DNA of 64,000 nucleotides. Origin: a phage. Shown here piece after piece: positions 3,975 to 62,897 of this stretch. How positions within the stretch are numbered: the stretch's first letter is position 1; the number at the start of each line of letters is the position of its first letter. Location: sequence record OZ346212.1. One strand, 5' to 3'. The translations under genes were made by a program, and so were the position numbers. The notes below the pieces were generated by a model. The model worked only from the letters and a program-made list of their open reading frames with translations, was not told where the DNA came from and did not search any database.

Positions 3975-4198
3975 CGACTTTGGTTAAAGCTACCTTTGTA
4001 GAAGAAAAGATGACAGACCTGTCATTCTTTAAAGAAGGAAAGACCTACGAGGTTTATTACGATAAAGCTCGTGCAAATAAAATGATTAAAGACGAGGAAG
4101 GGGTTGCCTGGTTTATCTCCCATCTGGCAAACGGTGAGTATCATATCTACGGAACCACCCTGCTTGCCAAGTTTGTAGCTGTTGAAGAGGACCTATGA
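3971..4198 (+). CDS. hypothetical protein (75 aa)
   Basis: Track ORF, start overlaps upstream stop (ATGA), co-directional compact packing. Confidence 0.55.
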   Translation: MTTLVKATFVEEKMTDLSFFKEGKTYEVYYDKARANKMIKDEEGVAWFISHLANGEYHIYGTTLLAKFVAVEEDL

Positions 4199-4389
4199 AA
4201 GTAAAGTATCTGGCTGAGGGTATGAGTAGGTATTTCACCCTTGGTGAAGAATATTGGCCATTTACAAGCAACGGCGATGTCTACGTGAAAGATAATTTCG
4301 GCACGCCATGGTTTTTGCACCCTAACGGGTTAGGGTATTCTATTTATCGCAGTGCAATGAGCGACACAACCCTTGCAGAGTTTGTATAG
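4195..4389 (+). CDS. hypothetical protein (64 aa)
   Basis: Track ORF, ATGA overlap with upstream gene. Confidence 0.5.
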   Translation: MKVKYLAEGMSRYFTLGEEYWPFTSNGDVYVKDNFGTPWFLHPNGLGYSIYRSAMSDTTLAEFV

Positions 4390-8632: not shown

Positions 8633-8830
8633 ATGATTTATCGAATCCGTGTAAGAGAAGATGCACCAGGCTGTTACTTTGACTGGCGTGGGTGGTGGTT
8701 TCTCCACCCAATGGATGGACTCACAGATAGAATGCTGGATGCTGCCCTTTATACAGATACCGACATAGAATATAATCTCTATCTGAAGGACGGTATAGAT
8801 AACGGCCTGTTTGAAGCAATTCCTGTGTAA
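8633..8830 (+). CDS. hypothetical protein (65 aa)
   Basis: SD AGGAGG upstream; preceded by TTGACA promoter-like hexamer at about 8546. Confidence 0.5.
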   Translation: MIYRIRVREDAPGCYFDWRGWWFLHPMDGLTDRMLDAALYTDTDIEYNLYLKDGIDNGLFEAIPV

Positions 8831-8898
8831 GAGACTGTAATAGCTATGTTTTATGATCTTCCTGTAGCACCACCACCTGTTGAACCCGGAGAACTAAG

Positions 8899-9324
8899 AT
8901 GATCTATGAAATGCCAAAACTGATTCGTGACGATGCCCAAAACGCCCACACCTTTATCATGGGCAAGCGCATGGATATTATTTGTCATAAAGATTTCTGG
9001 GAAGGTAGTTACTTCACAGAATATTTTGGTAAACTGGATAATGGTCTGCTGATCCAGTTCTACACCGATGCGGAAAACAATATCTGCTGGGAGTTCGAAA
9101 CTGAAGATATCCATAAACTTTTCACCTTCCTAGGTATTAAGGTTGAGGCCAAGTTTGAAGAAGGCGAGTGCGACGATTGTGGATTCTACGAGGTAACAGA
9201 TTTCTATCTCCCAAGTGGTGAGAACCTTTACTATGAAAGCCACTTCGGCAACTCAAATATGCCACAAGGTTGGGATGAGTTTTTTGAAATTGCGGAAGAG
9301 GAGCTGACATACCGTGATTATTGA
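8899..9324 (+). CDS. hypothetical protein (141 aa)
   Basis: Track ORF, SD-like GGAG upstream. Confidence 0.55.
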   Translation: MIYEMPKLIRDDAQNAHTFIMGKRMDIICHKDFWEGSYFTEYFGKLDNGLLIQFYTDAENNICWEFETEDIHKLFTFLGIKVEAKFEEGECDDCGFYEVTDFYLPSGENLYYESHFGNSNMPQGWDEFFEIAEEELTYRDY

Positions 9325-20436: not shown

Positions 20437-20652
20437 TCAGTCCAGCGGTTCATCCTCTACTTCACTGAAATCAATGTTCATGGTCTCTTCCCAACCATCG
20501 ATCTCAGCACAAGAGTGGAGTTCTTTAGGGTTTACTCCTAAAGCCTCAGCAACAGAGTCTATATTTAACACCTCTGGCAGGTATGATTCATCAAATTCAA
20601 GGTAAATCAGGCCACGAGTGTTGTCAGCTCCACCAAATATTTCTATCTTCAT
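20437..20652 (-). CDS. hypothetical acidic protein (71 aa)
   Basis: Track ORF; last gene of the minus-strand block. Confidence 0.5.
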   Translation of the reverse strand: MKIEIFGGADNTRGLIYLEFDESYLPEVLNIDSVAEALGVNPKELHSCAEIDGWEETMNIDFSEVEDEPLD

Positions 20653-21346: not shown

Positions 21347-21658
21347 CTATACCCATGAGGGCTTATCAAGGTTGGAGTAGCTGAAAGGTGTCAAAAGGTG
21401 ACTGTCAAAATCTCTCAAACTATCTAAATCTTTTTCCTCGTCCTGACACCATCTGTGCCTACATTTATTGTTGTAGTGCATAGAATGCATAGCGTTCTGC
21501 AACTTAACAGGTACAAGTGATTCAGGAGTAGATAGTATTGTTGGGTATGCCAGAATCACCTCAAACAGTGGAAACACATCGAAACTAAAGTCTACCTCTG
21601 CAGAGGTTGATGGCATATAGGAGTATTTAGCCGCCTTTGTAGACATAATCCACCTCAC
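21347..21658 (-). CDS. hypothetical protein (103 aa)
   Basis: Track ORF; ATGA overlap with upstream gene. Confidence 0.5.
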   Translation of the reverse strand: MRWIMSTKAAKYSYMPSTSAEVDFSFDVFPLFEVILAYPTILSTPESLVPVKLQNAMHSMHYNNKCRHRWCQDEEKDLDSLRDFDSHLLTPFSYSNLDKPSWV

Positions 21659-22775: not shown

Positions 22776-23039
22776 TCATTTATCCTTTTCGTCAAGAACT
22801 TTTTTAAATCTTTCAGGGATATCTCCCGTTCTTAGATAGTTCATGACCTCGCAAGGTTCCCACTTGAATTTCTTACAGAGCAGGGCGGCTGAGATTGTTT
22901 CATTGCGAAAAGAAAGGATATTAATATCCCACTCTGAGAACCCCAACTTCCGAAGGGTAGCTACAGAAATCCTCACCGCAACCCAGCAGCAAAAACATGC
23001 AACAAACGCCACTGCTACAACCCACATCAGGATGTTCAT
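22776..23039 (-). CDS. hypothetical membrane protein (87 aa)
   Basis: N-terminal hydrophobic helix ILMWVVAVAFVACFCCWVAV. Confidence 0.5.
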   Translation of the reverse strand: MNILMWVVAVAFVACFCCWVAVRISVATLRKLGFSEWDINILSFRNETISAALLCKKFKWEPCEVMNYLRTGDIPERFKKVLDEKDK

Positions 23040-23128
23040 ATAAGCACCTTACTGAAATACAAGACACAGTGTTAAGGTTACTGACCAGCAAATAATTAGC
23101 AGGACCATTGCAACCTTGGCAAGATTTA

Positions 23129-23416
23129 TCATAGTGCCTCTAAGATTTCATATCCTTCAGGTCGAAATACAAGCCACTCCGTGGCTCCGTTTGGTCGATA
23201 CGCTTTATACAGAACAACCTGATCTCGGCACATGCACATGGCTACATAGTTTTCATCCACACCTGCAGCCTGCATTGCATCTTCTTCTCCGGCAACTGCT
23301 TTGCTTACAACTTCCTTGGTAGGTAGGTGTGCGATCAGCTCGTCACCATCATTAATTCCAAAATGACTGAGTTCTCCATTGGTATCTTTAATCTTAATCT
23401 TAACCAGATCTTTCAT
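23129..23416 (-). CDS. hypothetical protein, possible distant member of MKVK...EIVE family
   Basis: Ends ...EGYEILEAL; tandem with family members. Confidence 0.5.
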   Translation of the reverse strand: MKDLVKIKIKDTNGELSHFGINDGDELIAHLPTKEVVSKAVAGEEDAMQAAGVDENYVAMCMCRDQVVLYKAYRPNGATEWLVFRPEGYEILEAL

Positions 23417-23745
23417 TAGTCTTTCTCCAGGTTCAAAGGTCCTAAGATTTCATATGCCAGATTAGAAGTTACCAGAGGGTCTTCTGCATCTTTAGTATTG
23501 TACCACCCGTGAATAACCAGAGTCCCACTTTGTTTCATATCCAACTGGAACTGTTCTGCAGTTTCCTCATCCAGCTCCAAGATTTCCATAAGGTATTTGA
23601 TGTTAGGAAGGTATGCAGCTGTTACAGTTCCCTCCACCAAACCTTCGGGCCAACCTACATCCGGATGACAAGTAGGAACCAGGTTGGTCAACTTAATGGT
23701 GTACGCTTTTTCTGCACGAGCCTTCAGTAACGGGTCAATCTTCAT
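23416..23745 (-). CDS. hypothetical protein (109 aa)
   Basis: Track ORF; ATGA overlap. Confidence 0.5.
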   Translation of the reverse strand: MKIDPLLKARAEKAYTIKLTNLVPTCHPDVGWPEGLVEGTVTAAYLPNIKYLMEILELDEETAEQFQLDMKQSGTLVIHGWYNTKDAEDPLVTSNLAYEILGPLNLEKD

Positions 23746-24095
23746 TATTCGTCCTCCTCTTCGGTGCCTGCTTCCAGTAATAAGTTAAGAATATCTTCTG
23801 CACAAGGCTCATAGAACTCTTGGCCTTCATTATCGATGATTTTGTAGTCATCTCCACGAATAATCAGGGGATCACTCTCAAAATTATCGAGACCTTTAAC
23901 AACGACAACACGATCGATTGCCATCATTGTAAGAACTTTATCGACATCTTCCTCTGCTACACCATACTGCAGCAGAATGTCTTTGGTAGGAGGAACAGCA
24001 TCCACCACAACGCCGTTACCAAAACCTTCTGGAAGTTTAGCTAAAATATCTTCCGGAACCACATTCACATCAAAACCGGTAATTTCTACTTTCAT
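23745..24095 (-). CDS. small acidic protein, MKVK...EIVE paralog family
   Basis: MKVEITGFD... N-terminus, acidic C-terminus; tandem array. Confidence 0.6.
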   Translation of the reverse strand: MKVEITGFDVNVVPEDILAKLPEGFGNGVVVDAVPPTKDILLQYGVAEEDVDKVLTMMAIDRVVVVKGLDNFESDPLIIRGDDYKIIDNEGQEFYEPCAEDILNLLLEAGTEEEDE

Positions 24096-24356
24096 TTACA
24101 GCACCTCTTCGTCAACTACTTCATAAAAATGGCCTGGGATTGCAATAGCGTTCTCACCTTCACCTGCAAACACAGTTCCGTCAAGAATCAACATCATAAG
24201 AATTTCTGTAATATCCTCTTCCGGAACGTTGCCAAAACCTTTAATCAGCTCGTAGGTTGGAATATTTACATCTAAGATGTCACCATCTTTAGAACGGAAA
24301 TCAACACCGTCCTGAATCTCTGCCGTTTCAAGGTTTTTCAATTTAATCTTCATCAA
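24096..24356 (-). CDS. small acidic protein, MKVK...EIVE paralog family
   Basis: MMKIKLKNLE... and C-terminal FYEVVDEEVL. Confidence 0.6.
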   Translation of the reverse strand: MMKIKLKNLETAEIQDGVDFRSKDGDILDVNIPTYELIKGFGNVPEEDITEILMMLILDGTVFAGEGENAIAIPGHFYEVVDEEVL

Positions 24357-24432
24357 TCGGTCTCCTGTCTTGTTAAGATGAAGGTATTATTTCACACAGG
24401 GTTGGCGTTGTCAACACCTGTGTGCAAGAAAA

Positions 24433-24828
24433 TTACTGAAACAGTGCGGATAAATTACCTTCTGGTGGGAACTTATCTGCCAAAAACGGTGTTAGCACAG
24501 TAGCCTTCTGAAGATCTGGGGTCCACTCGTTGTTCAGAACATCCCAGTAGTACGCAATGTTGCTGTGTGGGTGCCGCATTACGAACTTTTTCCCTTCGTA
24601 GTCGTCTGAAACCTCTACAGAAGAAATAACAACAGAATCTTCAAGGGTTTCTTCATAGAAAGATCCCCCTTCAAATTTCCAACGAGATGCAAGAGCCCCT
24701 GCCTTGAACGCTGCAGATAACGGACTGTCGGCAAGAACATACATTTCTTGCACTCTGTCGCTGCGATCTTTGCTTCTTACGTTGTATACAGTATCTGAGC
24801 TATACTCAACACGGTATAGGCTTACCAT
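24433..24828 (-). CDS. hypothetical protein, paralog of 26640-27038
   Basis: Shared YYWxxxxxxWTP...ATxLTPF segment. Confidence 0.55.
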   Translation of the reverse strand: MVSLYRVEYSSDTVYNVRSKDRSDRVQEMYVLADSPLSAAFKAGALASRWKFEGGSFYEETLEDSVVISSVEVSDDYEGKKFVMRHPHSNIAYYWDVLNNEWTPDLQKATVLTPFLADKFPPEGNLSALFQ

Positions 24829-25160
24829 TACCGCACCTCCTCAATAACTTCCACATCTGAACCTACCACAAATGCAAAAGGACAGGTTTCATGAAAGACA
24901 TCTGGATCGCCGCCAAGCTTGCTAACAATCTCTCCACCACTAATAAACACAAGCTCACCGATATTCATCAGATTGCTGAAATAGTAACCATAATGATTAA
25001 AGAATGCAGCAGGGTCAGGTAGACTGGTAGCCTCAAGCACTACATCGGTTGAGGTTACTTTCTTATCATAACCTCTCGCCTTTTGAGATGCAAGATCTGC
25101 AGAATCCTCAGGAGACCGGAGATGCACAGGAATTGTTTCACCAATAAAGCGTACTTTCAT
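24828..25160 (-). CDS. small acidic protein, MKVK...EIVE paralog family
   Basis: Internal start MKVRFIGE...; C-terminal AFVVGSDVEVIEEVR matches family; track ORF extends to 25187. Confidence 0.55.
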   Translation of the reverse strand: MKVRFIGETIPVHLRSPEDSADLASQKARGYDKKVTSTDVVLEATSLPDPAAFFNHYGYYFSNLMNIGELVFISGGEIVSKLGGDPDVFHETCPFAFVVGSDVEVIEEVR

Positions 25161-25164
25161 ATTA

Positions 25165-25428
25165 TCACCCAACAACCATAGCTTCAAAAGGAGTCATGAA
25201 CGAATAAACGGCATCATCATCTGCTTCAGGGAATGCTCCCAAAGACTTCATATCTGAACCCTTGACAAATACAAGGTTTTGATCAAAGGCTTCTTGGGGG
25301 TCAATCCGATACATATTTCGTAGAATATCGCTTACCTCCTCATCAAGAGGTGAGTATGCTGTGCACGTTTTTCCGATCAAGCTTTGAGAATCAGGGTATC
25401 CACCTGAAGTTTTAAAATAAACAATCAT
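25165..25428 (-). CDS. small acidic protein, MKVK...EIVE-related
   Basis: VFVKGSDMKSLGA matches family core VLVKGKDLLAAGA. Confidence 0.55.
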   Translation of the reverse strand: MIVYFKTSGGYPDSQSLIGKTCTAYSPLDEEVSDILRNMYRIDPQEAFDQNLVFVKGSDMKSLGAFPEADDDAVYSFMTPFEAMVVG

Positions 25429-25519
25429 ATAGTATCACCTCTGGTAAGAGATTGGGATTCCTTTCCCACAAATAATTACAAATCTTCCTTATCGAGGAAG
25501 TATGCTAATCCAAGCAGGA

Positions 25520-25789
25520 TTATTCCTCTACAATCTCATACACATCAGGAGTTACAATCAACTCTTCTCCGTTACCCGGTGCAACAAACACCACCAAACC
25601 TTCAGGTGTGTGCTTTTTAGCCATCTCGATAACATCTTCTCGCAGAGCTGGCTCCATCAGATCAAAACCTTCACCCAGGGCATCACGAACCACCTTCATA
25701 TAGTCAACTGGTTGTGCTTCAACAATCATGCCTTCAACCAGTCCACAGTTTTTGTCTGCCAGCTCAGTTTTGAATAATTTAATTTTCAT
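25520..25789 (-). CDS. small acidic protein, MKVK...EIVE paralog family
   Basis: MKIKLFKTE... and C-terminal TPDVYEIVEE. Confidence 0.6.
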   Translation of the reverse strand: MKIKLFKTELADKNCGLVEGMIVEAQPVDYMKVVRDALGEGFDLMEPALREDVIEMAKKHTPEGLVVFVAPGNGEELIVTPDVYEIVEE

Positions 25790-25926
25790 TTAGAGGTCTC
25801 CTCAATTATTTGATATTAATAGCCGTAACCTAACACATTAACTACAACTGCGATTGCAAACATAATTTCAAAGCATGCAATCTCTACATTTGGGACTAAT
25901 TTCTTAATCACACCCATTGTAGCACC

Positions 25927-26247
25927 TCATTCTCCAAAGTCAATCTTTACTTTGCCTTTCCCCTTACCTTTCTTTCCACCGCATTTAGCCAGCTGACGTG
26001 CTGCAACATCTACCATACGGTCAGTTGCCTCGTAAGCATCACTGCCTTTAGCCTTGGCAATAACTTCTTTTCCAGAATTGTCAAAAATGAACGCCATAAC
26101 TTCCTGGTGATCATTTTCAACTTTTACACTTACACGTGCATAGTTAACAGAGGGATGTAAACGCTCCAGCTTGGACATTTTGCGGGAAATAAAAGATACC
26201 ATACCTTCTGTGATTTCTACATTGTTGCCAGTGATTTCAATTTGCAT
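25927..26247 (-). CDS. hpf: ribosome hibernation promoting factor / RaiA-family protein
   Basis: MQIEITGNNVEITEGM...KLERL...VKVE...GKEVIAKAKGSDAYEATDRMVDVAARQL aligns along its length with E. coli HPF MQLNITGNNVEITEAL... Confidence 0.8.
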   Translation of the reverse strand: MQIEITGNNVEITEGMVSFISRKMSKLERLHPSVNYARVSVKVENDHQEVMAFIFDNSGKEVIAKAKGSDAYEATDRMVDVAARQLAKCGGKKGKGKGKVKIDFGE

Positions 26248-26331
26248 AACGTGTTCCTTTTAAGGAAGAGGGAATAACTATCTCTCTTTGAAAACAATGA
26301 TACTAAATCTGAAGCGTTGTGTCAACAGTTT

Positions 26332-26622
26332 TTACAGCTTGTTGTCGATAGTTTTTAAAATATCCACAGCAAGATCTGCCATTTTTCGAACATACTCTGC
26401 AAACTCAACAGGATCCTTGATCAAAGAATTCACAGGGTCGTACCCTAGAGCGTTTAAAATGGCTGCAGCATCTACAACCTTCTCATCATTTGCGAAGATC
26501 TCTCCGTCAAACTTGTAGGTCTATTTTGAGTCAACCTTAGCAGAGCAGGGTTTGTCCATGCTTGTTACACCATCGTCTTTAAACTCTCCTGCGTTATCAA
26601 TATTTAGAATTAAATCCATCAT
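26332..26622 (-). pseudogene. small ORF interrupted by an in-frame TAG (amber) after codon 33
   Basis: GAGGTG SD then ATG ATG (26622); TAG at 26521-26523; same frame stays open for 62 further protein-like codons (TYKFDGEIFANDEKVVDAAAILNALGYDPV...) without any start codon. Confidence 0.4.
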
Positions 26623-26639
26623 GGTGACACCTCACTGTT

Positions 26640-27038
26640 TCAGTTTAGCTTTTCTTCAACAACCCCATAACTTGGGGCAGAGTCAAGAGCTTTCTGGTTT
26701 AAAAGTGGCGTAGCAGAATCTGCAAACGGTGTCCAAGTTTTTGTTCTGGAATTCCAGTAATGCTTCACTCTGGAATCTGGATGCACTATAACAAAAACTT
26801 TTTCACTTGTCAACACATTAATTTCTTCTACACCCTTGCTGATAATTTCTCCGTCATAGCCCCCAGTCTGGTATCCTTCGTACCAGGTTCTTGCATAGGC
26901 ATAGCCAGCCTGCCAGCATGCAGCCTCCTCCGAGGTGGAGACTACGTAGAAGTCTTTCTCAAATTCCGGAATACGCCCTTGCTTTACGCTCCAAGCTCCG
27001 CGAATTTTCATTGTTACTTTGAAAAGCTTGTTCTTCAT
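26640..27038 (-). CDS. hypothetical protein, paralog of 24433-24828
   Basis: Shared HYWNSRTKTWTPFADSATPLL segment. Confidence 0.55.
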   Translation of the reverse strand: MKNKLFKVTMKIRGAWSVKQGRIPEFEKDFYVVSTSEEAACWQAGYAYARTWYEGYQTGGYDGEIISKGVEEINVLTSEKVFVIVHPDSRVKHYWNSRTKTWTPFADSATPLLNQKALDSAPSYGVVEEKLN

Positions 27039-27039
27039 A

Positions 27040-27294
27040 CTACCGCTCTACAATCTCTACGTCTGTTCCTACACCGAAGGCATAGTAATGTTCTTCCCCA
27101 AAGTAATACTTGGGGACACCCGCTTTGATCAGATCTAACCCGCGAATAAATACCACACCGTGTGATACAGTGGAATGCTTCTGACGCACAGGATCGTTGT
27201 CAGGCAACCATTCAAAGTACACCGCAGGTACAACCTTTCCCTTCAGGAAGGATTGTCCCAAGTAGACGTTAGAATCAAGAATTTTAACCTTCAT
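27040..27294 (-). CDS. small protein, MKVK...EIVE paralog family
   Basis: MKVKILDSNVYLGQ...GLDLIKAG...YYAFGVGTDVEIVER. Confidence 0.65.
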   Translation of the reverse strand: MKVKILDSNVYLGQSFLKGKVVPAVYFEWLPDNDPVRQKHSTVSHGVVFIRGLDLIKAGVPKYYFGEEHYYAFGVGTDVEIVER

Positions 27295-27511
27295 TCTCGT
27301 CCTCCACTATCTCTGCATCCTCACCAAGGGCAAAGTTGTAGGTCCACTGGCTGTCAAAGCAGTCCTGAGATGCACCAGCGGCAATAAGATCTGCACCTTT
27401 TATTTTTAAAAGGTCAGGATAATCTTCGTTAGGGATAGCGGTAAACACTTTCCCCACTAAGGGCTCCTGACCAATATAGAAGCTTGAATCTAAAACTTTA
27501 ACTTTCATCAA
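27284..27511 (-). CDS. small acidic protein, MKVK...EIVE paralog family
   Basis: MMKVKVLDSSFYIGQ...GADLIAAG...FALGEDAEIVEDE; closest paralog of 27040-27294. Confidence 0.65.
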   Translation of the reverse strand: MMKVKVLDSSFYIGQEPLVGKVFTAIPNEDYPDLLKIKGADLIAAGASQDCFDSQWTYNFALGEDAEIVEDENEG

Positions 27512-27795
27512 CGGTCTCCCTCAGGCGGTTGTGGGACGTAAACACTGTTACGAATATCGTCAGCAGTGTAGTAATAAGTGGTTCCAACCCTATCTCGGGC
27601 TGCAATGTACTCTGCTATACCAACAAGTGCCATTGATTTGGTGGCGTATCTTCCCCACTCGTTAGCTCCCCAGTAGAATTTAGACCAGTAGGGAATAAGA
27701 CCGAACAAATATACCTTTTGACGAACTTCCCAGTAAGTGCCTTTTCCGACAAGTTTAAACTCTACTTCACTACTGTTAATCTTTTTCATTATCAA
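27508..27795 (-). CDS. hypothetical protein (95 aa)
   Basis: Track ORF; W/Y-rich. Confidence 0.5.
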   Translation of the reverse strand: MIMKKINSSEVEFKLVGKGTYWEVRQKVYLFGLIPYWSKFYWGANEWGRYATKSMALVGIAEYIAARDRVGTTYYYTADDIRNSVYVPQPPEGDR

Positions 27796-28088
27796 TCTCC
27801 CTCTACCGTGGTCGGATTGTCAGTAAGAAATTGAGCATTGGCTGGAGGCACGCCTGACATTTTCCACACAACCATAAGTTTATAACCAGGCACTCTATTA
27901 AGTGCAGATCGAGTAGAGTTTGTGCACGTATACTTTCGCTTTCCAAACCCGTTCTCCATCATAATCCAGTACCCAGTATCTTTGTCACCAGGTATCGGTA
28001 GACCACCTTCATCAACCCACTGAATTGACCACGGCACGATGGCTACAGCTTTATATTTAAACTTTTTAAACCACTCAAAAAGTTTCAT
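27792..28088 (-). CDS. hypothetical protein (98 aa)
   Basis: Track ORF; ATGA overlap. Confidence 0.5.
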   Translation of the reverse strand: MKLFEWFKKFKYKAVAIVPWSIQWVDEGGLPIPGDKDTGYWIMMENGFGKRKYTCTNSTRSALNRVPGYKLMVVWKMSGVPPANAQFLTDNPTTVEGD

Positions 28089-28388
28089 AATTCAGCCCCG
28101 CATAGACATAATCACTATAAATAGGCAAACAATGAATCCGAATGCCACGCCACCCATAAACGTTAATATTGATGCAATCATAGTCAATCAGCCTCGCCTG
28201 GCAACTCTTCTACCTTAACATGCCGAAAAGTGTTACCGTAATGGTTGATCCATGACATCAGCTCACTTTCTTGCTCTTCCTCTGGGATGAACTCTCGAAT
28301 ACTGACAAGTTTTAAGAAAACCTAATCACAATCTGCACCCATTCTACCAGACAGACAATAGTGCTTCATAAAAACCCTCCCGCCCGGT

Positions 28389-28583
28389 TTAGAATATTGC
28401 TTCTTCCATTGCGCCTGAGAGCAACAAAGAGGTGATCTGGCTAACATTCATCTCAGACTCTACTTCCTCCCCTTTGAAAGGTTCGCGGCAGAATAGGACT
28501 GTTTCAGGACTTTTACTTCGAACAATATAATACAAATCATTCAATGTGTTGTAGTAATAAGTGTTAAAACGTAAGTTTTTCAT
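28389..28583 (-). CDS. hypothetical protein (64 aa)
   Basis: Track ORF. Confidence 0.45.
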   Translation of the reverse strand: MKNLRFNTYYYNTLNDLYYIVRSKSPETVLFCREPFKGEEVESEMNVSQITSLLLSGAMEEAIF

Positions 28584-28867
28584 TTTCTAGTCCTCTTCTT
28601 AGATTTTTGGGGAGAAACGCTTTCTGCAATACGAGACAGACGTTCTTCTGAAGCCTTACCTACTCCAGGTTTTTTGAGTGGATTATCTTTATGACCACAA
28701 TCCAACTGGATATTGGATACCTCTCCAACTTTGTAAGTCAATTCTAGCAAAAGGTTGTCGTCCTTGTCAAATGTTTTTACGATAAATTTTTTATCGTTCT
28801 CCTGAACTTCATATCTGGTACCTGCAGTATACAGCATGGTGCCATCAGCATAGGATATCCAGATCAT
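28580..28867 (-). CDS. hypothetical protein (95 aa)
   Basis: Track ORF; basic C-terminus. Confidence 0.5.
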   Translation of the reverse strand: MIWISYADGTMLYTAGTRYEVQENDKKFIVKTFDKDDNLLLELTYKVGEVSNIQLDCGHKDNPLKKPGVGKASEERLSRIAESVSPQKSKKRTRK

Positions 28868-29211
28868 TGAGCCTCCTTTTGCTGCAACAGCATTAACTCT
28901 TTGTTAGAGATCTTTACTGCTGTTTTTATTGTTCCATCTTCACGAAACCACGACCAGAACTCTACAGTGTCACCACTATCAAGTAAAGCATGCCCATGGT
29001 AAAAATCTTTGTCCTTAGACAGTTTCTCATCTATATCTGCATCAACACATTCGTGATCCAGAGCATTTTGCCTGAACGCATCGGTTATGCCAATGCACGC
29101 CTTGCTCTCAAGACTGGTATATCCGATATCTTTTAATTCAGTTTCCCAAGTCCAGTACCCTATAAAAGCTAAAACAGCTACCCACAGTAATAACGTTTTA
29201 ATCTTTGGCAT
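28864..29211 (-). CDS. hypothetical protein with N-terminal signal/TM segment
   Basis: MPKIKTLLLWVAVLAFIGYWTW hydrophobic N-terminus. Confidence 0.5.
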   Translation of the reverse strand: MPKIKTLLLWVAVLAFIGYWTWETELKDIGYTSLESKACIGITDAFRQNALDHECVDADIDEKLSKDKDFYHGHALLDSGDTVEFWSWFREDGTIKTAVKISNKELMLLQQKEAQ

Positions 29212-29273
29212 TCTCTCTACCTCTTTCTTAGTTTATTTCACTATGGCACATCCTTTGTGCCATATCTCAACTA

Positions 29274-29744
29274 CTACTTAAATAGTAGTTCAAAATAGTG
29301 CAAAATTAACAGAAGTTGAACTACACCTAGTGCAACGGCGAGTATGTTAATCTTAGAATCGAAAAACTTCTTAACTTTTACTCTAAAAGGTTCCTTAATG
29401 TCCTTTACGATCCTATCTATAGATGACCTCATATCTCTGATTACCATCCTGAACATTAAAGACGGATGCTCCCCCATCTCCGTAACGGAATCGAAAACAT
29501 ACTCTCTTCGGTCATAAGGGCCGCCAGCTCTGCGTATTAACCTCTCCACAGAGACCTCGAACGTCACACCTGTAACGTAATCATCTATAACAAGTCGTGA
29601 CGGGTCTTTACCTTTACTATCAAGAGGTATCAAAGTTATCTTTCCAGATTTTGTTAAAATTTCCCCTTTTTCAAGCAAGGTGTACCAATGCTCTCTGCCA
29701 AGACTGTTGAGGCACGTTTTTACATATTTAACAAACATCGTCAC
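29274..29744 (-). CDS. hypothetical protein with C-terminal TM helix (156 aa)
   Basis: C-terminal ILAVALGVVQLLLILHYF. Confidence 0.5.
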   Translation of the reverse strand: MTMFVKYVKTCLNSLGREHWYTLLEKGEILTKSGKITLIPLDSKGKDPSRLVIDDYVTGVTFEVSVERLIRRAGGPYDRREYVFDSVTEMGEHPSLMFRMVIRDMRSSIDRIVKDIKEPFRVKVKKFFDSKINILAVALGVVQLLLILHYFELLFK

Positions 29745-29944
29745 CCCTCATCGCACGTCTGATATAACCACTCTATAAAATCTTGATACCATTCGCCCTC
29801 TGAGCGCTCCGTAGGCCAATAATCTTCACCCTCTCGTGCATTAAAATCTGAGTATTCAACTTTCCACTCCTTTACCAGCTCGTGGAGAAGGTTTTCAGCC
29901 TGCTCTAAAGATTTATTTTTTACCATTGCTGTCTCCTTTTTCAA
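29741..29944 (-). CDS. hypothetical protein (67 aa)
   Basis: Track ORF. Confidence 0.45.
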   Translation of the reverse strand: MKKETAMVKNKSLEQAENLLHELVKEWKVEYSDFNAREGEDYWPTERSEGEWYQDFIEWLYQTCDEG

Positions 29945-30145
29945 GATAGTTATACATCAGAACTGCACCACCTAAGATGGCTACCAGTAACAATATCCCA
30001 GATAGCATCTCAATAAACATGGCTTGAAACACTGGAAGGTCTCCCTAAATTAACGCACCATTTTAAATACATGCTCTTTTCCCATAAAGGTGCCTGGCTA
30101 AGATCTGCGTAGAACGCAATCTCTTTAAGAACAGTATAGATAGTT

Positions 30146-30373
30146 TTAGGTGCGGTCTCCATCCCTACTCTCCTTCCTGATATTCTTGTAGTAATCAACT
30201 AGGCACATTATTACGATGAAGATAACAACAGGCCAAAAAGGTGCAGCAGTGATGATGGTGATAAAATCATCAAACTTCACCCTTCGTCTGGACACGATGC
30301 ATACACCTGTCAAGAATACCGCTGTTATAACGGACATTACCAGGTAACCTATTAGCACAACATTTATACTCAT
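30146..30373 (-). CDS. small membrane protein with two TM helices and charged C-terminus (holin-like topology)
   Basis: VVLIGYLVMSVITAVFLTGVCIV and ITIITAAPFWPVVIFIVIMCLV followed by KNIRKESRDGDRT. Confidence 0.45.
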   Translation of the reverse strand: MSINVVLIGYLVMSVITAVFLTGVCIVSRRRVKFDDFITIITAAPFWPVVIFIVIMCLVDYYKNIRKESRDGDRT

Positions 30374-30403
30374 TGGTCCTCCCTTTGTAGGTTAAATTGT
30401 ATA

Positions 30404-30937
30404 CTACAAATGGTCGCTGAGGGTGTCAAGAAAATTATCCCGTTCTTTCTCAGAGTTTTCATGTGTGTAGCTGAAAAACATATCGAGAATAACCTTATTG
30501 ATATATTCCAGCTCCTCTGTGTTCAGATGCTTAGCAGGATCTACAATGACATCCCAAATATCATACAGACCGCACTCATGATACCCATAACGCCACTCAA
30601 TTGTCAAGCTGAGCGGCAAATCTTTACCTTCACAAACAACCTTCCATCTACATATGTTGGTATCTGGTCGTACCTGTGCACGGTACACCTGCACAAAATC
30701 CAATTTGAATTTGAGGTACTCGTCATACAATTTAAGCACAAAGCTCTCGATTTGTGGAGACACTTTTGCAGCAAACTGTGCGTATTCGTACTTGCACTGG
30801 ATGATCTTTCTGCGTTTTGCAGTTAAATTTTTTGCCGCCAGTTGTTCTTCAGTGTATCTCCACCTACGATCAACAAACGCAACAGGGTCTTTGTCCCCAT
30901 AGAGGTCTTCCCAGTTAATCAGAAGCATACCTGTCAC
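30404..30937 (-). CDS. hypothetical protein (177 aa)
   Basis: Track ORF. Confidence 0.55.
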   Translation of the reverse strand: MTGMLLINWEDLYGDKDPVAFVDRRWRYTEEQLAAKNLTAKRRKIIQCKYEYAQFAAKVSPQIESFVLKLYDEYLKFKLDFVQVYRAQVRPDTNICRWKVVCEGKDLPLSLTIEWRYGYHECGLYDIWDVIVDPAKHLNTEELEYINKVILDMFFSYTHENSEKERDNFLDTLSDHL

Positions 30938-31167
30938 TCCTCCACAACTTCAAGGCCTTTACCGCCTCGCTCTGGCAGATTACTTAAAGATAGGTAATAC
31001 ATATAATCAGGAGAGATCCTGCCAGACTCTGCACCTGCAGCTAGTAAATCCTTCCCTTTAACCAGGACAACATTCTCGTTTGCAGATAGCCGTTTTGCTT
31101 CCACAATTTTACCAACACAGTCAACCAAGGAAGGGTACCCTAAATCTGTAAGAAATTTAACTTTCAT
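30934..31167 (-). CDS. small protein, MKVK...EIVE paralog family
   Basis: MKVKFLTDLGYP...VKGKDLLAAGA...LEVVEE. Confidence 0.6.
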   Translation of the reverse strand: MKVKFLTDLGYPSLVDCVGKIVEAKRLSANENVVLVKGKDLLAAGAESGRISPDYMYYLSLSNLPERGGKGLEVVEE

Positions 31168-31204
31168 GCTACCTCCTACCTACCGTCCCTGGTAAGATAA
31201 ATTA

Positions 31205-31603
31205 TTACTGAACAGAGCGCGGTGCTGGGAAGGATAACTCTTCTAAAGAGAAGATTTCATTTCCTACCACCCAAGTTGCTGGGTCATCTGGATCAACAGG
31301 TTGGATAATCATTACCTCATCCGCCTCGCACACACGTTTCCCACCCATAGTAGCGTCAGCCACTAACATACGCGGCTCTTCAGAAATGCACAGGTAGCCA
31401 CCTCGGCCCACTGTTCCTTCCACGGGATCCTGCCCTTTGACCACAATGAATACCTTCTCTCCTGTGGCGATATTACTTTTCACACTAACAGTTTGACCAA
31501 CTTTAGATGTACCGATCTTGGTGGCTTCAAACATTAAATCCCGAATTACTGTTGCATAGTTGCCGGACACTTTCTTACCTTCTTTAGTAATCTCAATCTT
31601 CAT
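31205..31603 (-). CDS. hypothetical protein, possible distant family member (132 aa)
   Basis: MKIEITKEGKKV...; track ORF. Confidence 0.5.
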   Translation of the reverse strand: MKIEITKEGKKVSGNYATVIRDLMFEATKIGTSKVGQTVSVKSNIATGEKVFIVVKGQDPVEGTVGRGGYLCISEEPRMLVADATMGGKRVCEADEVMIIQPVDPDDPATWVVGNEIFSLEELSFPAPRSVQ

Positions 31604-31872
31604 AACCTAGGCTCCTTAAATGAATCTATGTAATCAATTAAATCCCAAGCATCGCGATGGGCTGTCAGAGGGTATACTTCTCCGAGAGGGATCATAGCAA
31701 TAAGTCTATCAAAAACCCAGTCTGGACGCAACATTTTATGGTGATATTCCCACTCACCTTCCACAGATTTTTTCTGAGTGATCAGGATCTCTGTGTAGTG
31801 TTTCGCCTGTCTTGAGTAGATTGAAAATGACTTGTACATAAAGACCCCCTCTTGTTGAAAACAACAATACAC
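31600..31872 (-). CDS. hypothetical protein (90 aa)
   Basis: Track ORF. Confidence 0.5.
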   Translation of the reverse strand: MYCCFQQEGVFMYKSFSIYSRQAKHYTEILITQKKSVEGEWEYHHKMLRPDWVFDRLIAMIPLGEVYPLTAHRDAWDLIDYIDSFKEPRL

Positions 31873-62084: not shown

Positions 62085-62159
62085 GCCCTGTTAGCTTAGT
62101 GGATAAAGCAGCGGCCTTCTAAGCCGTTGACACTGGTTCGAGTCCAGTACGGGGTGCCA
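62085..62159 (+). tRNA. tRNA-Arg (anticodon UCU)
   Basis: Hand-folded cloverleaf: acceptor GCCCTGT/ACGGGGT, anticodon loop CTTCTAA, T-loop TTCGAGT, encoded CCA. Confidence 0.8.
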
Positions 62160-62163
62160 AATT

Positions 62164-62250
62164 GGGGAGTTATCCCGTAGAGGTAGCGGTGTAGACTGTA
62201 AATCTATTGTCATTGCGACTCGGGTGGTTCGACTCCACCACTCCCCACCA
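62164..62250 (+). tRNA. tRNA-Tyr (anticodon GUA), long variable arm
   Basis: Acceptor GGGGAGT/ACTCCCC, anticodon loop CTGTAAA, T-loop TTCGACT, CCA; overall like E. coli tRNA-Tyr. Confidence 0.8.
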
Positions 62251-62364
62251 AATTTATATTTTTAGATGCATAAATAATACAGATAATGGCATTGATATTT
62301 ATCGTCGTTTATACTAGTCACTAACTGCTCGAAAATCAGTGTCATTATCAGTATTATTTATAAA

Positions 62365-62455
62365 GGAGGGTAGGGAGCAATGGTGCTCAATCGGTCTTGA
62401 AAACCGTCCCGTTGAGGATGACTCGATGATGGTTCGATTCCATTACTCTCCGCCA
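62365..62455 (+). tRNA. tRNA-Ser (anticodon UGA), long variable arm
   Basis: Acceptor GGAGGGT/ACTCTCC, anticodon loop CTTGAAA, 20-nt variable arm, T-loop TTCGATT, CCA. Confidence 0.75.
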
Positions 62456-62553
62456 CATTGTTGACCTTGTAATTAAGCGAAAGTCGGAAGCAGAACCGGA
62501 TTATCAAATGTTACAGTCGTCATCGCCGACTAGCAACATGGTCAACATACTGA

Positions 62554-62650
62554 GCTAGGTAAGCCCTTTGGCAAGGGCGAGGATTTTTAATCCTGAAAAT
62601 AGACGAGGTAGTCGTTGAATACATAGGTGGTTCGATTCCATCACCTAGCA
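62554..62650 (+). tRNA. atypical 97-nt tRNA-like gene (possibly Lys-UUU with about 29-nt variable region) or pseudo-tRNA
   Basis: Perfect acceptor GCTAGGT/ACCTAGC, D-arm GCCC...GGGC, hairpin with loop TTTTTAA, extra hairpin ACGA-ggtag-TCGT, T-arm GGTGG-TTCGATT-CCATC; no encoded CCA. Confidence 0.35.
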
Positions 62651-62657
62651 CCTTTTT

Positions 62658-62733
62658 GCTGATGTAGCACAATCGGTAGTGCAATTGATTTGTAATCAAT
62701 AGGTTGTAGGTTCAAGTCCTGCCATCAGCACCA
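62658..62733 (+). tRNA. tRNA-Thr (anticodon UGU)
   Basis: Acceptor GCTGATG/CATCAGC, anticodon stem ATTGA/TCAAT with loop TTTGTAA, T-loop TTCAAGT, CCA. Confidence 0.85.
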
Positions 62734-62734
62734 A

Positions 62735-62809
62735 GGCCCTGTAGCTGGAAGGTTCAAGCAAGCGACTCATAATCGCCAGACGGTGGTTCAATTCCACCCA
62801 GGGCCACCA
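62735..62809 (+). tRNA. tRNA-Met or Ile2 (anticodon CAU), elongator type
   Basis: Acceptor GGCCCTG/CAGGGCC fully paired (not initiator-like), anticodon loop CTCATAA, T-loop TTCAATT, CCA. Confidence 0.75.
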
Positions 62810-62820
62810 AATAGTAAATA

Positions 62821-62897
62821 CTCCGCGTAGCTCAGCTTGGTAGAGCGCCTGATTTGGGATCAGGAGGTCGAGTGTTCGAATCACTCCGTGGAGACCA
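62821..62897 (+). tRNA. tRNA-Pro (anticodon UGG)
   Basis: Acceptor CTCCGCG/CGTGGAG, D-arm GCTC...GAGC, anticodon stem CCTGA/TCAGG with loop TTTGGGA, T-loop TTCGAAT, CCA. Confidence 0.85.

Follow-up and report, generated by a model that had tools for sequence, protein, structure and literature searches.

The small genes between positions 23,129 and 31,603 of a phage DNA window (sequence record OZ346212.1; the window is the whole stretch that was analysed, 64,000 nucleotides) form an accessory array with three families of paralogs, called A, B and C here, in which each gene is referred to by its lowest coordinate. On balance, we favour the reading that this array represents old expansions of two SH3-like families, A and B, joined by family C, that the SH3-like proteins are non-enzymatic binders, and that one run of three genes, 25165-24828-24433 (triplet 2), is a host-specific and most probably a counter-defence determinant. 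We picture an rV5-like accessory array made up of five family A genes, five family B genes encoding the same barrel with a helical insert between strands 2 and 3, and two genes of the orphan family C.

With their broad host range, the rV5-like phages are candidates for use in therapy and biocontrol. For about two thirds of their genes, no function is known. The present analysis sorts twelve such genes into three families and gives a fold for two of these families. It extends the range of family A to phages of Proteus, Klebsiella, Aeromonas, Pseudomonas and Pantoea, as well as to E. coli prophages, and ties the families to an overlooked, strain-specific loss of fitness in public transposon data. 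Following up this loss of fitness, seen in the E. coli strain CFE311, could reveal a new anti-defence mechanism together with a host-range marker.

Paralogy within three families

The open reading frames (ORFs) that an original prediction, made from the DNA letters alone, had singled out lie on the minus strand at their predicted coordinates and are annotated coding sequences in close relatives, where the ATG starts at 24353 and 27508 are annotated and not the TTG starts at 24356 and 27511. That prediction had seen in them one family of eight to ten paralogs. The paralogy is real, and it is divided between two families, A and B, whose deep link is probable but unproven. Pairwise Smith-Waterman comparison against shuffles, hhalign comparison of orthogroups, and leave-one-out hidden Markov models (HMMs) run against all 475 ORFs of the window agree on three sequence groups, with five members in A, five in B and two in C.

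Family A comprises 27284, 27040, 30934, 24828 and 25165, and the omitted member always takes rank 1 in the leave-one-out search (E-values, E, of 1.6e-17 to 7e-6). The most typical sequence of this family in the window is 27284; 27040 carries an insertion between strands 2 and 3 and aligns with 27284 at an hhalign P of 4e-22, and 24828 is reached solely by the purpose-built family HMM, not by phrog_5009. Family B comprises 23745, 24096, 23129, 25520 and 23416, where the omitted member is again always first (E 2e-8 to 2.5e-3) and the next match stands at E 0.28 or worse. Family C is the pair 24433 and 26640 (hhalign P 1e-7, shuffle p 5e-9), both matching phrog_7379, which bears out the interleaved second pair that had been proposed.

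The predicted list of members changes at its edges. Gene 23129, listed as a likely member, belongs to family B, and 23416 had been overlooked. The other likely member, 31205-31603, is unsupported: its hhalign E of 0.07 against A and 0.035 against B falls inside the range of the negative controls. HMMs and hhalign found no further significant member elsewhere in the 64-kb window; the ORFs 4195-4389 and 20437-20652 begin with MK[VI]x, but their scores are not significant. The shared motifs are also narrower than described. The N-terminal MK[VI]x[IVFLY] occurs in ten of the 475 ORFs, seven being family members, the central KG.DL..AG is confined to family A, and the C-terminal EIVE is strict in some members only. 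The proteins had been called small and acidic, and this holds for eight of the ten A and B proteins, which are strongly acidic (isoelectric point, pI, 4.05-4.68), with 27040 (pI 6.8) and 30934 (pI 5.4) as exceptions.

The view that these proteins belong to no described family stands. Members of A, B and C gave no informative Pfam, NCBIfam or PDB sequence match, and the PHROGs that they match are all of no known function. None of the ten window proteins matches a Pfam family at E up to 1, none of 36 diverse sequences of family A does so at E up to 0.1, and the models for eukaryotic-type SH3 (PF00018) and KOW (PF00467) do not match the A and B proteins. We count the lack of any catalytic family in Pfam, NCBIfam and PDB in favour of a non-enzymatic role. 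Nearly all of the diverse family A sequences (35 of the 36) match phrog_5009, and 19 also match phrog_13367.

Outside the window, a word-indexed search of 5.8 billion proteins returned 36 clusters for A, 53 for B and 8 for C, almost only from rV5-like contigs, nearly all of them about 135 kb long. One family A homolog stands apart: P0032, 75 aa long and with 309 member sequences, lies in E. coli lambdoid prophages, and its nearest window member is 30934, at 43% identity. In three of these prophages (L002 and L003, 8001-8228; L004, 371-598) its gene is one of several small ORFs in the interval from the Q antiterminator gene to the holin/lysozyme cassette, a classic site for accessory (moron) genes. 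When 1.84 billion representatives were searched exhaustively by HMMER with the profile of family A, 40 clusters emerged, among them full-length relatives, 63-87 aa in size, that follow the consensus MKVKLLNDGGY...GKVV.A...I.G.ELI.AGA...Y.F..G.E.E..EE. The domain also occurs in two or three tandem copies within single metagenomic proteins (P0099, P0103, P0122). By tblastn, relatives are found in phages of Proteus, Klebsiella, Citrobacter, Aeromonas, Pseudomonas, Pantoea, Morganella and Iodobacter, some with two copies and some with a copy fused to other sequence. Such fusions form the N-terminal part of a 152-aa protein of Klebsiella phage phi1_175008 (L010, 6001-6459) and the C-terminal part of a 275-aa protein of Citrobacter phage Tr1 (L011, 5425-6252). 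Neither family B nor family C was found next to the family A homologs at the four loci examined in other phages.

The array was also predicted to be diversifying rapidly, and its orthologs do not support this. A divergent relative (the rV5-like metagenomic contig L006, orthologs 29-74% identical) carries one-to-one orthologs of the five B genes, four A genes and one C gene. The ratio of nonsynonymous to synonymous divergence (dN/dS) was computed against a closer relative, L005, since values against L006 were saturated and discarded, and it is 0.04-0.26 for family members and 0.04-0.19 for neighbouring genes. These low ratios and the one-to-one orthologs indicate that the paralogs are old and that purifying selection acts on them. 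Divergence within the region is greatest in 27284, 27040, 30934 and 24096 (80-87% identity, against 92-99%); it comes with high dS, which suggests allele exchange by recombination.

The gene order holds two A-A-C triplets, 27284-27040-26640 (triplet 1) and 25165-24828-24433 (triplet 2). Genes in matching positions are somewhat more alike (24828 and 27040, P 1.8e-6; 25165 and 27284, P 1.6e-5), and the two triplets are compatible with an ancient segmental duplication. At 8505-8979 of L006 the ortholog of 27040 is frameshifted, with a 44-aa N-terminal ORF at 8723-8857 and the C-terminal part at 8800-8979 in another frame, and the ortholog of 26640 is absent. Triplet 1 is therefore decaying there, while triplet 2 is intact.

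The fold of families A and B

AlphaFold2 models were built from the family alignments for one A member (27284) and one B member (25520), and both are five-stranded SH3-like barrels. The 27284 model has a mean predicted local distance difference test score (pLDDT) of 92.0, with strands at 2-5, 21-23, 33-37, 56-61 and 65-69 and a short helix at 38-43. The 25520 model has a pLDDT of 93.3, with strands at 2-5, 22-27, 66-69, 76-79 and 84-88 and three helices inserted between strands 2 and 3. The two models have the same fold and topology, with a common strand order, and the helical insert of family B falls in the same loop as the inserts of the A members 27040, 25165 and 24828. Structural neighbours of the models include Spt5/NusG KOW domains and the ribosomal proteins eL6 and L24.

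A and B share a fold and, as we consider quite probable, an ancestor. The profiles of the two families (A3 for family A, A4 for family B) align at an hhalign E of 7e-4 over 53 colinear columns. A broader family A profile (A5) matches A4 with a score of 29.2 (E 1.5e-4, probability 52%), as against 5.5-16.8 in 30 control comparisons with other proteins of the region, and none of 200 column shuffles reached this score (mean 8.7, maximum 13.7). The match spans the first 28 columns only, which correspond to strands 1 and 2, the N-terminal hairpin.

The competing view is that two unrelated families converged on a generic SH3-like barrel, and that the MKxK start and the acidic E-I-V-E end are generic traits of small beta-rich phage proteins. 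Few small folds are as common as the SH3-like barrel, and no pair of individual A and B members is significant by Smith-Waterman or hhalign (best P 0.02-0.07). Single B sequences reach E 0.01-0.02 against the A profile, much like unrelated ORFs such as 4195-4389 (E 0.005), and the profile match is restricted to its short hairpin. A Foldseek search of viral models with the 25520 model likewise retrieved no family A member above noise; it found an 86-aa protein (E 5e-4) and a 95-aa protein (E 1.7e-3, from phage vB_EcoM-ECP32) in rV5-like phage records, which by their lengths appear to be the B members 24096 and 23129. Convergence nevertheless seems rather unlikely to us: the profile score lies about 13 standard deviations above the column shuffles and is about twice the best of the 30 controls, strand order and insertion site are common to both families, and A and B are interleaved in one array, with B found only where A is.

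Orthologs of 25520 are labelled 'sigma 54 modulation factor' in several GenBank records (nomo_102, for example), a name belonging to the hibernation promotion factor (HPF/RaiA) group. The fold of HPF is an alpha/beta sandwich. Assignment of 25520 to this group is rejected, as it matches neither PF02482 nor any other Pfam family and its model is an SH3-like barrel with helices; apparently the name was carried over from the HPF gene next to it, 25927-26247.

Requirement for triplet 2 in a clinical host

A transposon sequencing preprint (HIDEN-SEQ; bioRxiv 10.1101/2025.11.20.689424) covers Bas54, which is Escherichia phage MaxBurger (MZ501093). Most Bas54 genes of this region are 97-100% identical to their window counterparts, the exceptions being 27040 (79.5%), 27284 (90.5%) and 31205 (85.6%). 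On K-12, bas54_0146-0150 and 0157-0159 are classed as 'Non-essential' and 0151-0153 as 'Intermediate', with a saturation of 0.69-0.73, and no family member is essential there. The phenotypic comparison is between K-12 and one clinical host, the uropathogenic E. coli CFE311. In this host, bas54_0150 (24433), bas54_0151 (24828) and bas54_0152 (25165) have 0 reads each, with log2 fold changes (log2FC) of -6.77, -6.17 and -7.16, and bas54_0157 (26640) is depleted at log2FC -2.14; the adjusted p is printed as 0.00000 for all four (bioRxiv 10.1101/2025.11.20.689424). The orthologs of triplet 2 are tolerated on K-12 and lost in CFE311, a pattern that would suit anti-defence genes and to which polarity may have contributed. 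This indispensability suggests that the three genes probably help the phage to cope with particular hosts.

The preprint does not discuss bas54_0150-0152; its knockouts are of bas54_0063 and bas54_0140, and the CFE311 systems it cloned are DS-28 and Gao_Tmn. Sheets S6 (labelled K-12 vs CFE303, the second clinical strain) and S7 (K-12 vs CFE311) of its Extended Data Table 8 contain identical numbers under the same CFE311 header. One of the knocked-out genes, bas54_0140, is reported to be needed to overcome DS-28, a predicted defence system of CFE311 (bioRxiv 10.1101/2025.11.20.689424). Its counterpart in the window is 21347-21646 (minus strand, 99 aa, 100% identical), which sits 1.5 kb past the downstream end of the array and is transcribed in the same direction, so the neighbourhood of the array does contain counter-defence genes.

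The reading we favour builds on this pattern. Triplet 2 would be a host-specific fitness determinant that most probably neutralises an immunity or exclusion factor of some E. coli, CFE311 among them, which K-12 lacks. The A and B proteins most likely have no enzymatic activity and would bind other macromolecules one-to-one, in a stoichiometric manner. The idea of a host-takeover or anti-defence arsenal, as first proposed, gains independent support from the transposon data on triplet 2 and from its neighbour 21347-21646; for most of the array no phenotype was seen.

Several points weigh against this reading. Eight of the ten SH3-like genes (the five B genes and the A genes 27040, 27284 and 30934) show no significant effect in CFE311, and any function assigned to them would be conjectural (bioRxiv 10.1101/2025.11.20.689424). 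Any binding partner or defence target of the A, B or C proteins is so far hypothetical. The three genes with zero reads are adjacent and co-transcribed, and polarity onto 24433 could account for part of this loss, in which case the SH3-like genes 25165 and 24828 might not be required themselves. The requirement in CFE311 could also stem from host physiology and not from immunity. Lastly, the sequence link between A and B is confined to the N-terminal hairpin. That the ORFs are not functional at all is rejected by purifying selection, by genus-wide conservation (118-119 phage records carry 27284 and 24433) and by the transposon phenotypes.

A bolder version, which we regard as possible but doubtful, treats triplet 2 as a three-component counter-defence module, the ten SH3-like genes as a library of binders, and family A as a widespread phage inhibitor domain. 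Two SH3-like barrels and an orphan 131-aa protein would act jointly against an immunity determinant of uropathogenic E. coli, and 27284-27040-26640 would be a decaying duplicate of triplet 2. Each SH3-like binder may be aimed at a different host factor, and the inhibitor domain would be the one seen in many Proteobacteria phages, sometimes as tandem repeats or fusions.

It is unlikely, in our judgement, that only family C (24433, and less so 26640) is host-specific, with the A and B genes as unrelated passengers and the depletion of 25165 and 24828 a polar effect. In its favour, 25165, 24828 and 24433 adjoin one another and are transcribed together in this order, and the next upstream gene, bas54_0153 (25520), is also reduced, though not significantly (log2FC -2.78). 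The other C paralog, 0157, is independently depleted, and conservation within the block peaks at 24433, which is extremely conserved across the genus (at least 99% identical in 106 of 119 phage records). Against this, 0158 (-0.30) and 0159 (+0.98), directly upstream of 0157, are not depleted, so polarity is not general here, and the preprint authors argue that polar effects are not widespread and report that insertions ahead of essential genes are usually tolerated (bioRxiv 10.1101/2025.11.20.689424). The saturation of 0151 and 0152 is moreover reduced on K-12, where 0150 is fully dispensable, which argues that 0151 and 0152 matter in their own right.

It is improbable that the A and B proteins bind ribosomes or RNA polymerase and act, in concert with HPF, on gene expression and not on immunity. 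For this view, the HPF gene sits in mid-array, the structural neighbours include KOW and ribosomal barrels, and 0151-0153 carry a mild fitness cost even on K-12. Against it, the sequences give no sign of KOW domains or ribosomal proteins, the acidity of the proteins (pI about 4-4.7) sets them apart from the nucleic-acid-binding KOW and ribosomal barrels, HPF is non-essential on K-12 and unaffected in CFE311, and the strong phenotype is strain-specific (bioRxiv 10.1101/2025.11.20.689424).

Operons, neighbouring genes and known systems

The window is DNA of an rV5-like Vequintavirus. Over positions 23000-31700 its identity to the Escherichia phages nomo and magaca is 99.3%, and of the 122 phage records with matches, 115 span no less than 80% of this region. 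Every gene from about 21.3 to about 58 kb of the window is on the minus strand. The start and stop codons of successive array genes overlap or abut, which points to compact operons; the stop region of 30934 likewise overlaps the start of 30404-30937 by 4 nt. A promoter scan found sigma-70-like promoters with a perfect TTGACA, on the coding strand and in intergenic gaps, at 26325-26297 (upstream of HPF), 24414-24386 (upstream of 24096) and 28204-28177 (upstream of 27792). Four family B genes follow in a row downstream of the second of these (24096, 23745, 23416, 23129). We suggest that the array genes are organised in closely packed operons, probably with translational coupling, under host sigma-70-type promoters. 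The rV5 genome paper describes host-type promoters genome-wide and does not mention paralog families. The genes are, as predicted, real small paralogs, placed in an accessory region rich in host promoters, and the embedded HPF gene is confirmed. The features are collected in Table 1.

Table 1. Array genes and associated features of the window, in the direction of transcription (LOO, leave-one-out HMM)
Coordinates	Strand	Assignment	Bas54 ortholog	Supporting matches
31205..31603	-	phrog_5748 member; A/B membership unsupported		family HMMs E 0.7 or worse
30934..31167	-	Family A, 77 aa, solitary	bas54_0166	phrog_5009 E 8.3e-36; LOO E 1.9e-9
27284..27508	-	Family A, 74 aa from ATG, first gene of triplet 1	bas54_0159, 90.5% identical	phrog_5009 E 5.9e-37; LOO E 1.2e-17
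27040..27294	-	Family A, 84 aa, second gene of triplet 1	bas54_0158	phrog_5009 E 4.2e-27; LOO E 1.6e-17
26640..27038	-	Family C, 132 aa, third gene of triplet 1	bas54_0157	phrog_7379 E 8e-74; hhalign vs 24433 P 1e-7
25927..26247	-	HPF/RaiA-like ribosome hibernation promotion factor; embedded in array, not a family member		PF02482 E 4.2e-15
25520..25789	-	Family B, 89 aa	bas54_0153	LOO E 2.5e-3, rank 1
25165..25428	-	Family A, 87 aa with insert, first gene of triplet 2	bas54_0152, 100% identical	LOO E 7e-6; phrog_5009 weak, E 1.2e-4
24828..25160	-	Family A, 110 aa with long inserts, second gene of triplet 2	bas54_0151, 99.1% identical	LOO E 5.9e-7; hhalign vs 27040 P 1.8e-6
24433..24828	-	Family C, 131 aa, third gene of triplet 2	bas54_0150	phrog_7379 E 2e-66
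24096..24353	-	Family B, 85 aa	bas54_0149	LOO E 1.1e-4, rank 1; hhalign vs 23745 P 5e-5
23745..24095	-	Family B, 116 aa, acidic C-terminal extension	bas54_0148	LOO E 2e-8
23416..23745	-	Family B, 109 aa	bas54_0147	LOO E 1.5e-3, rank 1, next match 0.58; colinear in family B alignment A4
23129..23416	-	Family B, 95 aa	bas54_0146	LOO E 1.5e-5

Some neighbouring genes vary between relatives. The ORF between 26640 and HPF, 26333-26623 (minus strand), is interrupted by a TGG-to-TAG change at 26522 (W34*); its counterparts nomo_105, rV5_ev146 and bas54_0156 are intact, and the remainder of the 291 nt is nearly identical. Either the gene has recently become a pseudogene or an amber mutant, or the change is an error of sequencing. 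The segment 27792-29740 (minus strand) holds about five to six small genes (27792, 28389, 28580, 28864, 29274 and others) that Bas54 lacks; there, the ortholog of 29741 comes almost immediately after 0160. This block is an accessory indel within the genus. Its gene 29274 is named 'HNH homing endonuclease' or 'structural protein' depending on the record, and has no Pfam match. Further away, seven tRNA calls cluster at 62085-62897 (plus strand), for Arg, Tyr, Ser, Thr, Met and Pro together with one ARAGORN call, at 62554-62652, that has a four-base anticodon.

Among known systems, phrog_5009 and phrog_13367 for family A and phrog_7379 for family C have no recorded function. In PHROGs, 25165, 24828 and each of the five B members fall into singleton-like families of their own (13920, 13661, 11868, 12359, 12155, 12794 and 12457), with no function, fold or mutual link recorded for them. 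At the level of fold, the closest known counterparts of A and B are the SH3-like small beta-barrels, including eukaryotic SH3, Spt5/NusG KOW, PsaE and the C-terminal domain of retroviral integrase. A bacterial regulator, the CarS antirepressor of Myxococcus, is an acidic SH3-like protein reported to mimic operator DNA. It serves here purely as a mechanistic analogy: CarS, too, is small and consists of one SH3-like barrel domain, and it works solely by binding and sequestering its partner, the kind of action suggested for the array proteins.

A further comparison is with the anti-defence genes found by HIDEN-SEQ, as exemplified by bas54_0140 and DS-28. The bas54_0140 product has no sequence similarity to the array proteins, and its cognate system was found by knockout and cloning, whereas bas54_0150-0152 had no such follow-up. 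Both are small genes without known domains in the same leftward accessory cluster, and both are dispensable on K-12 and depleted in CFE311.

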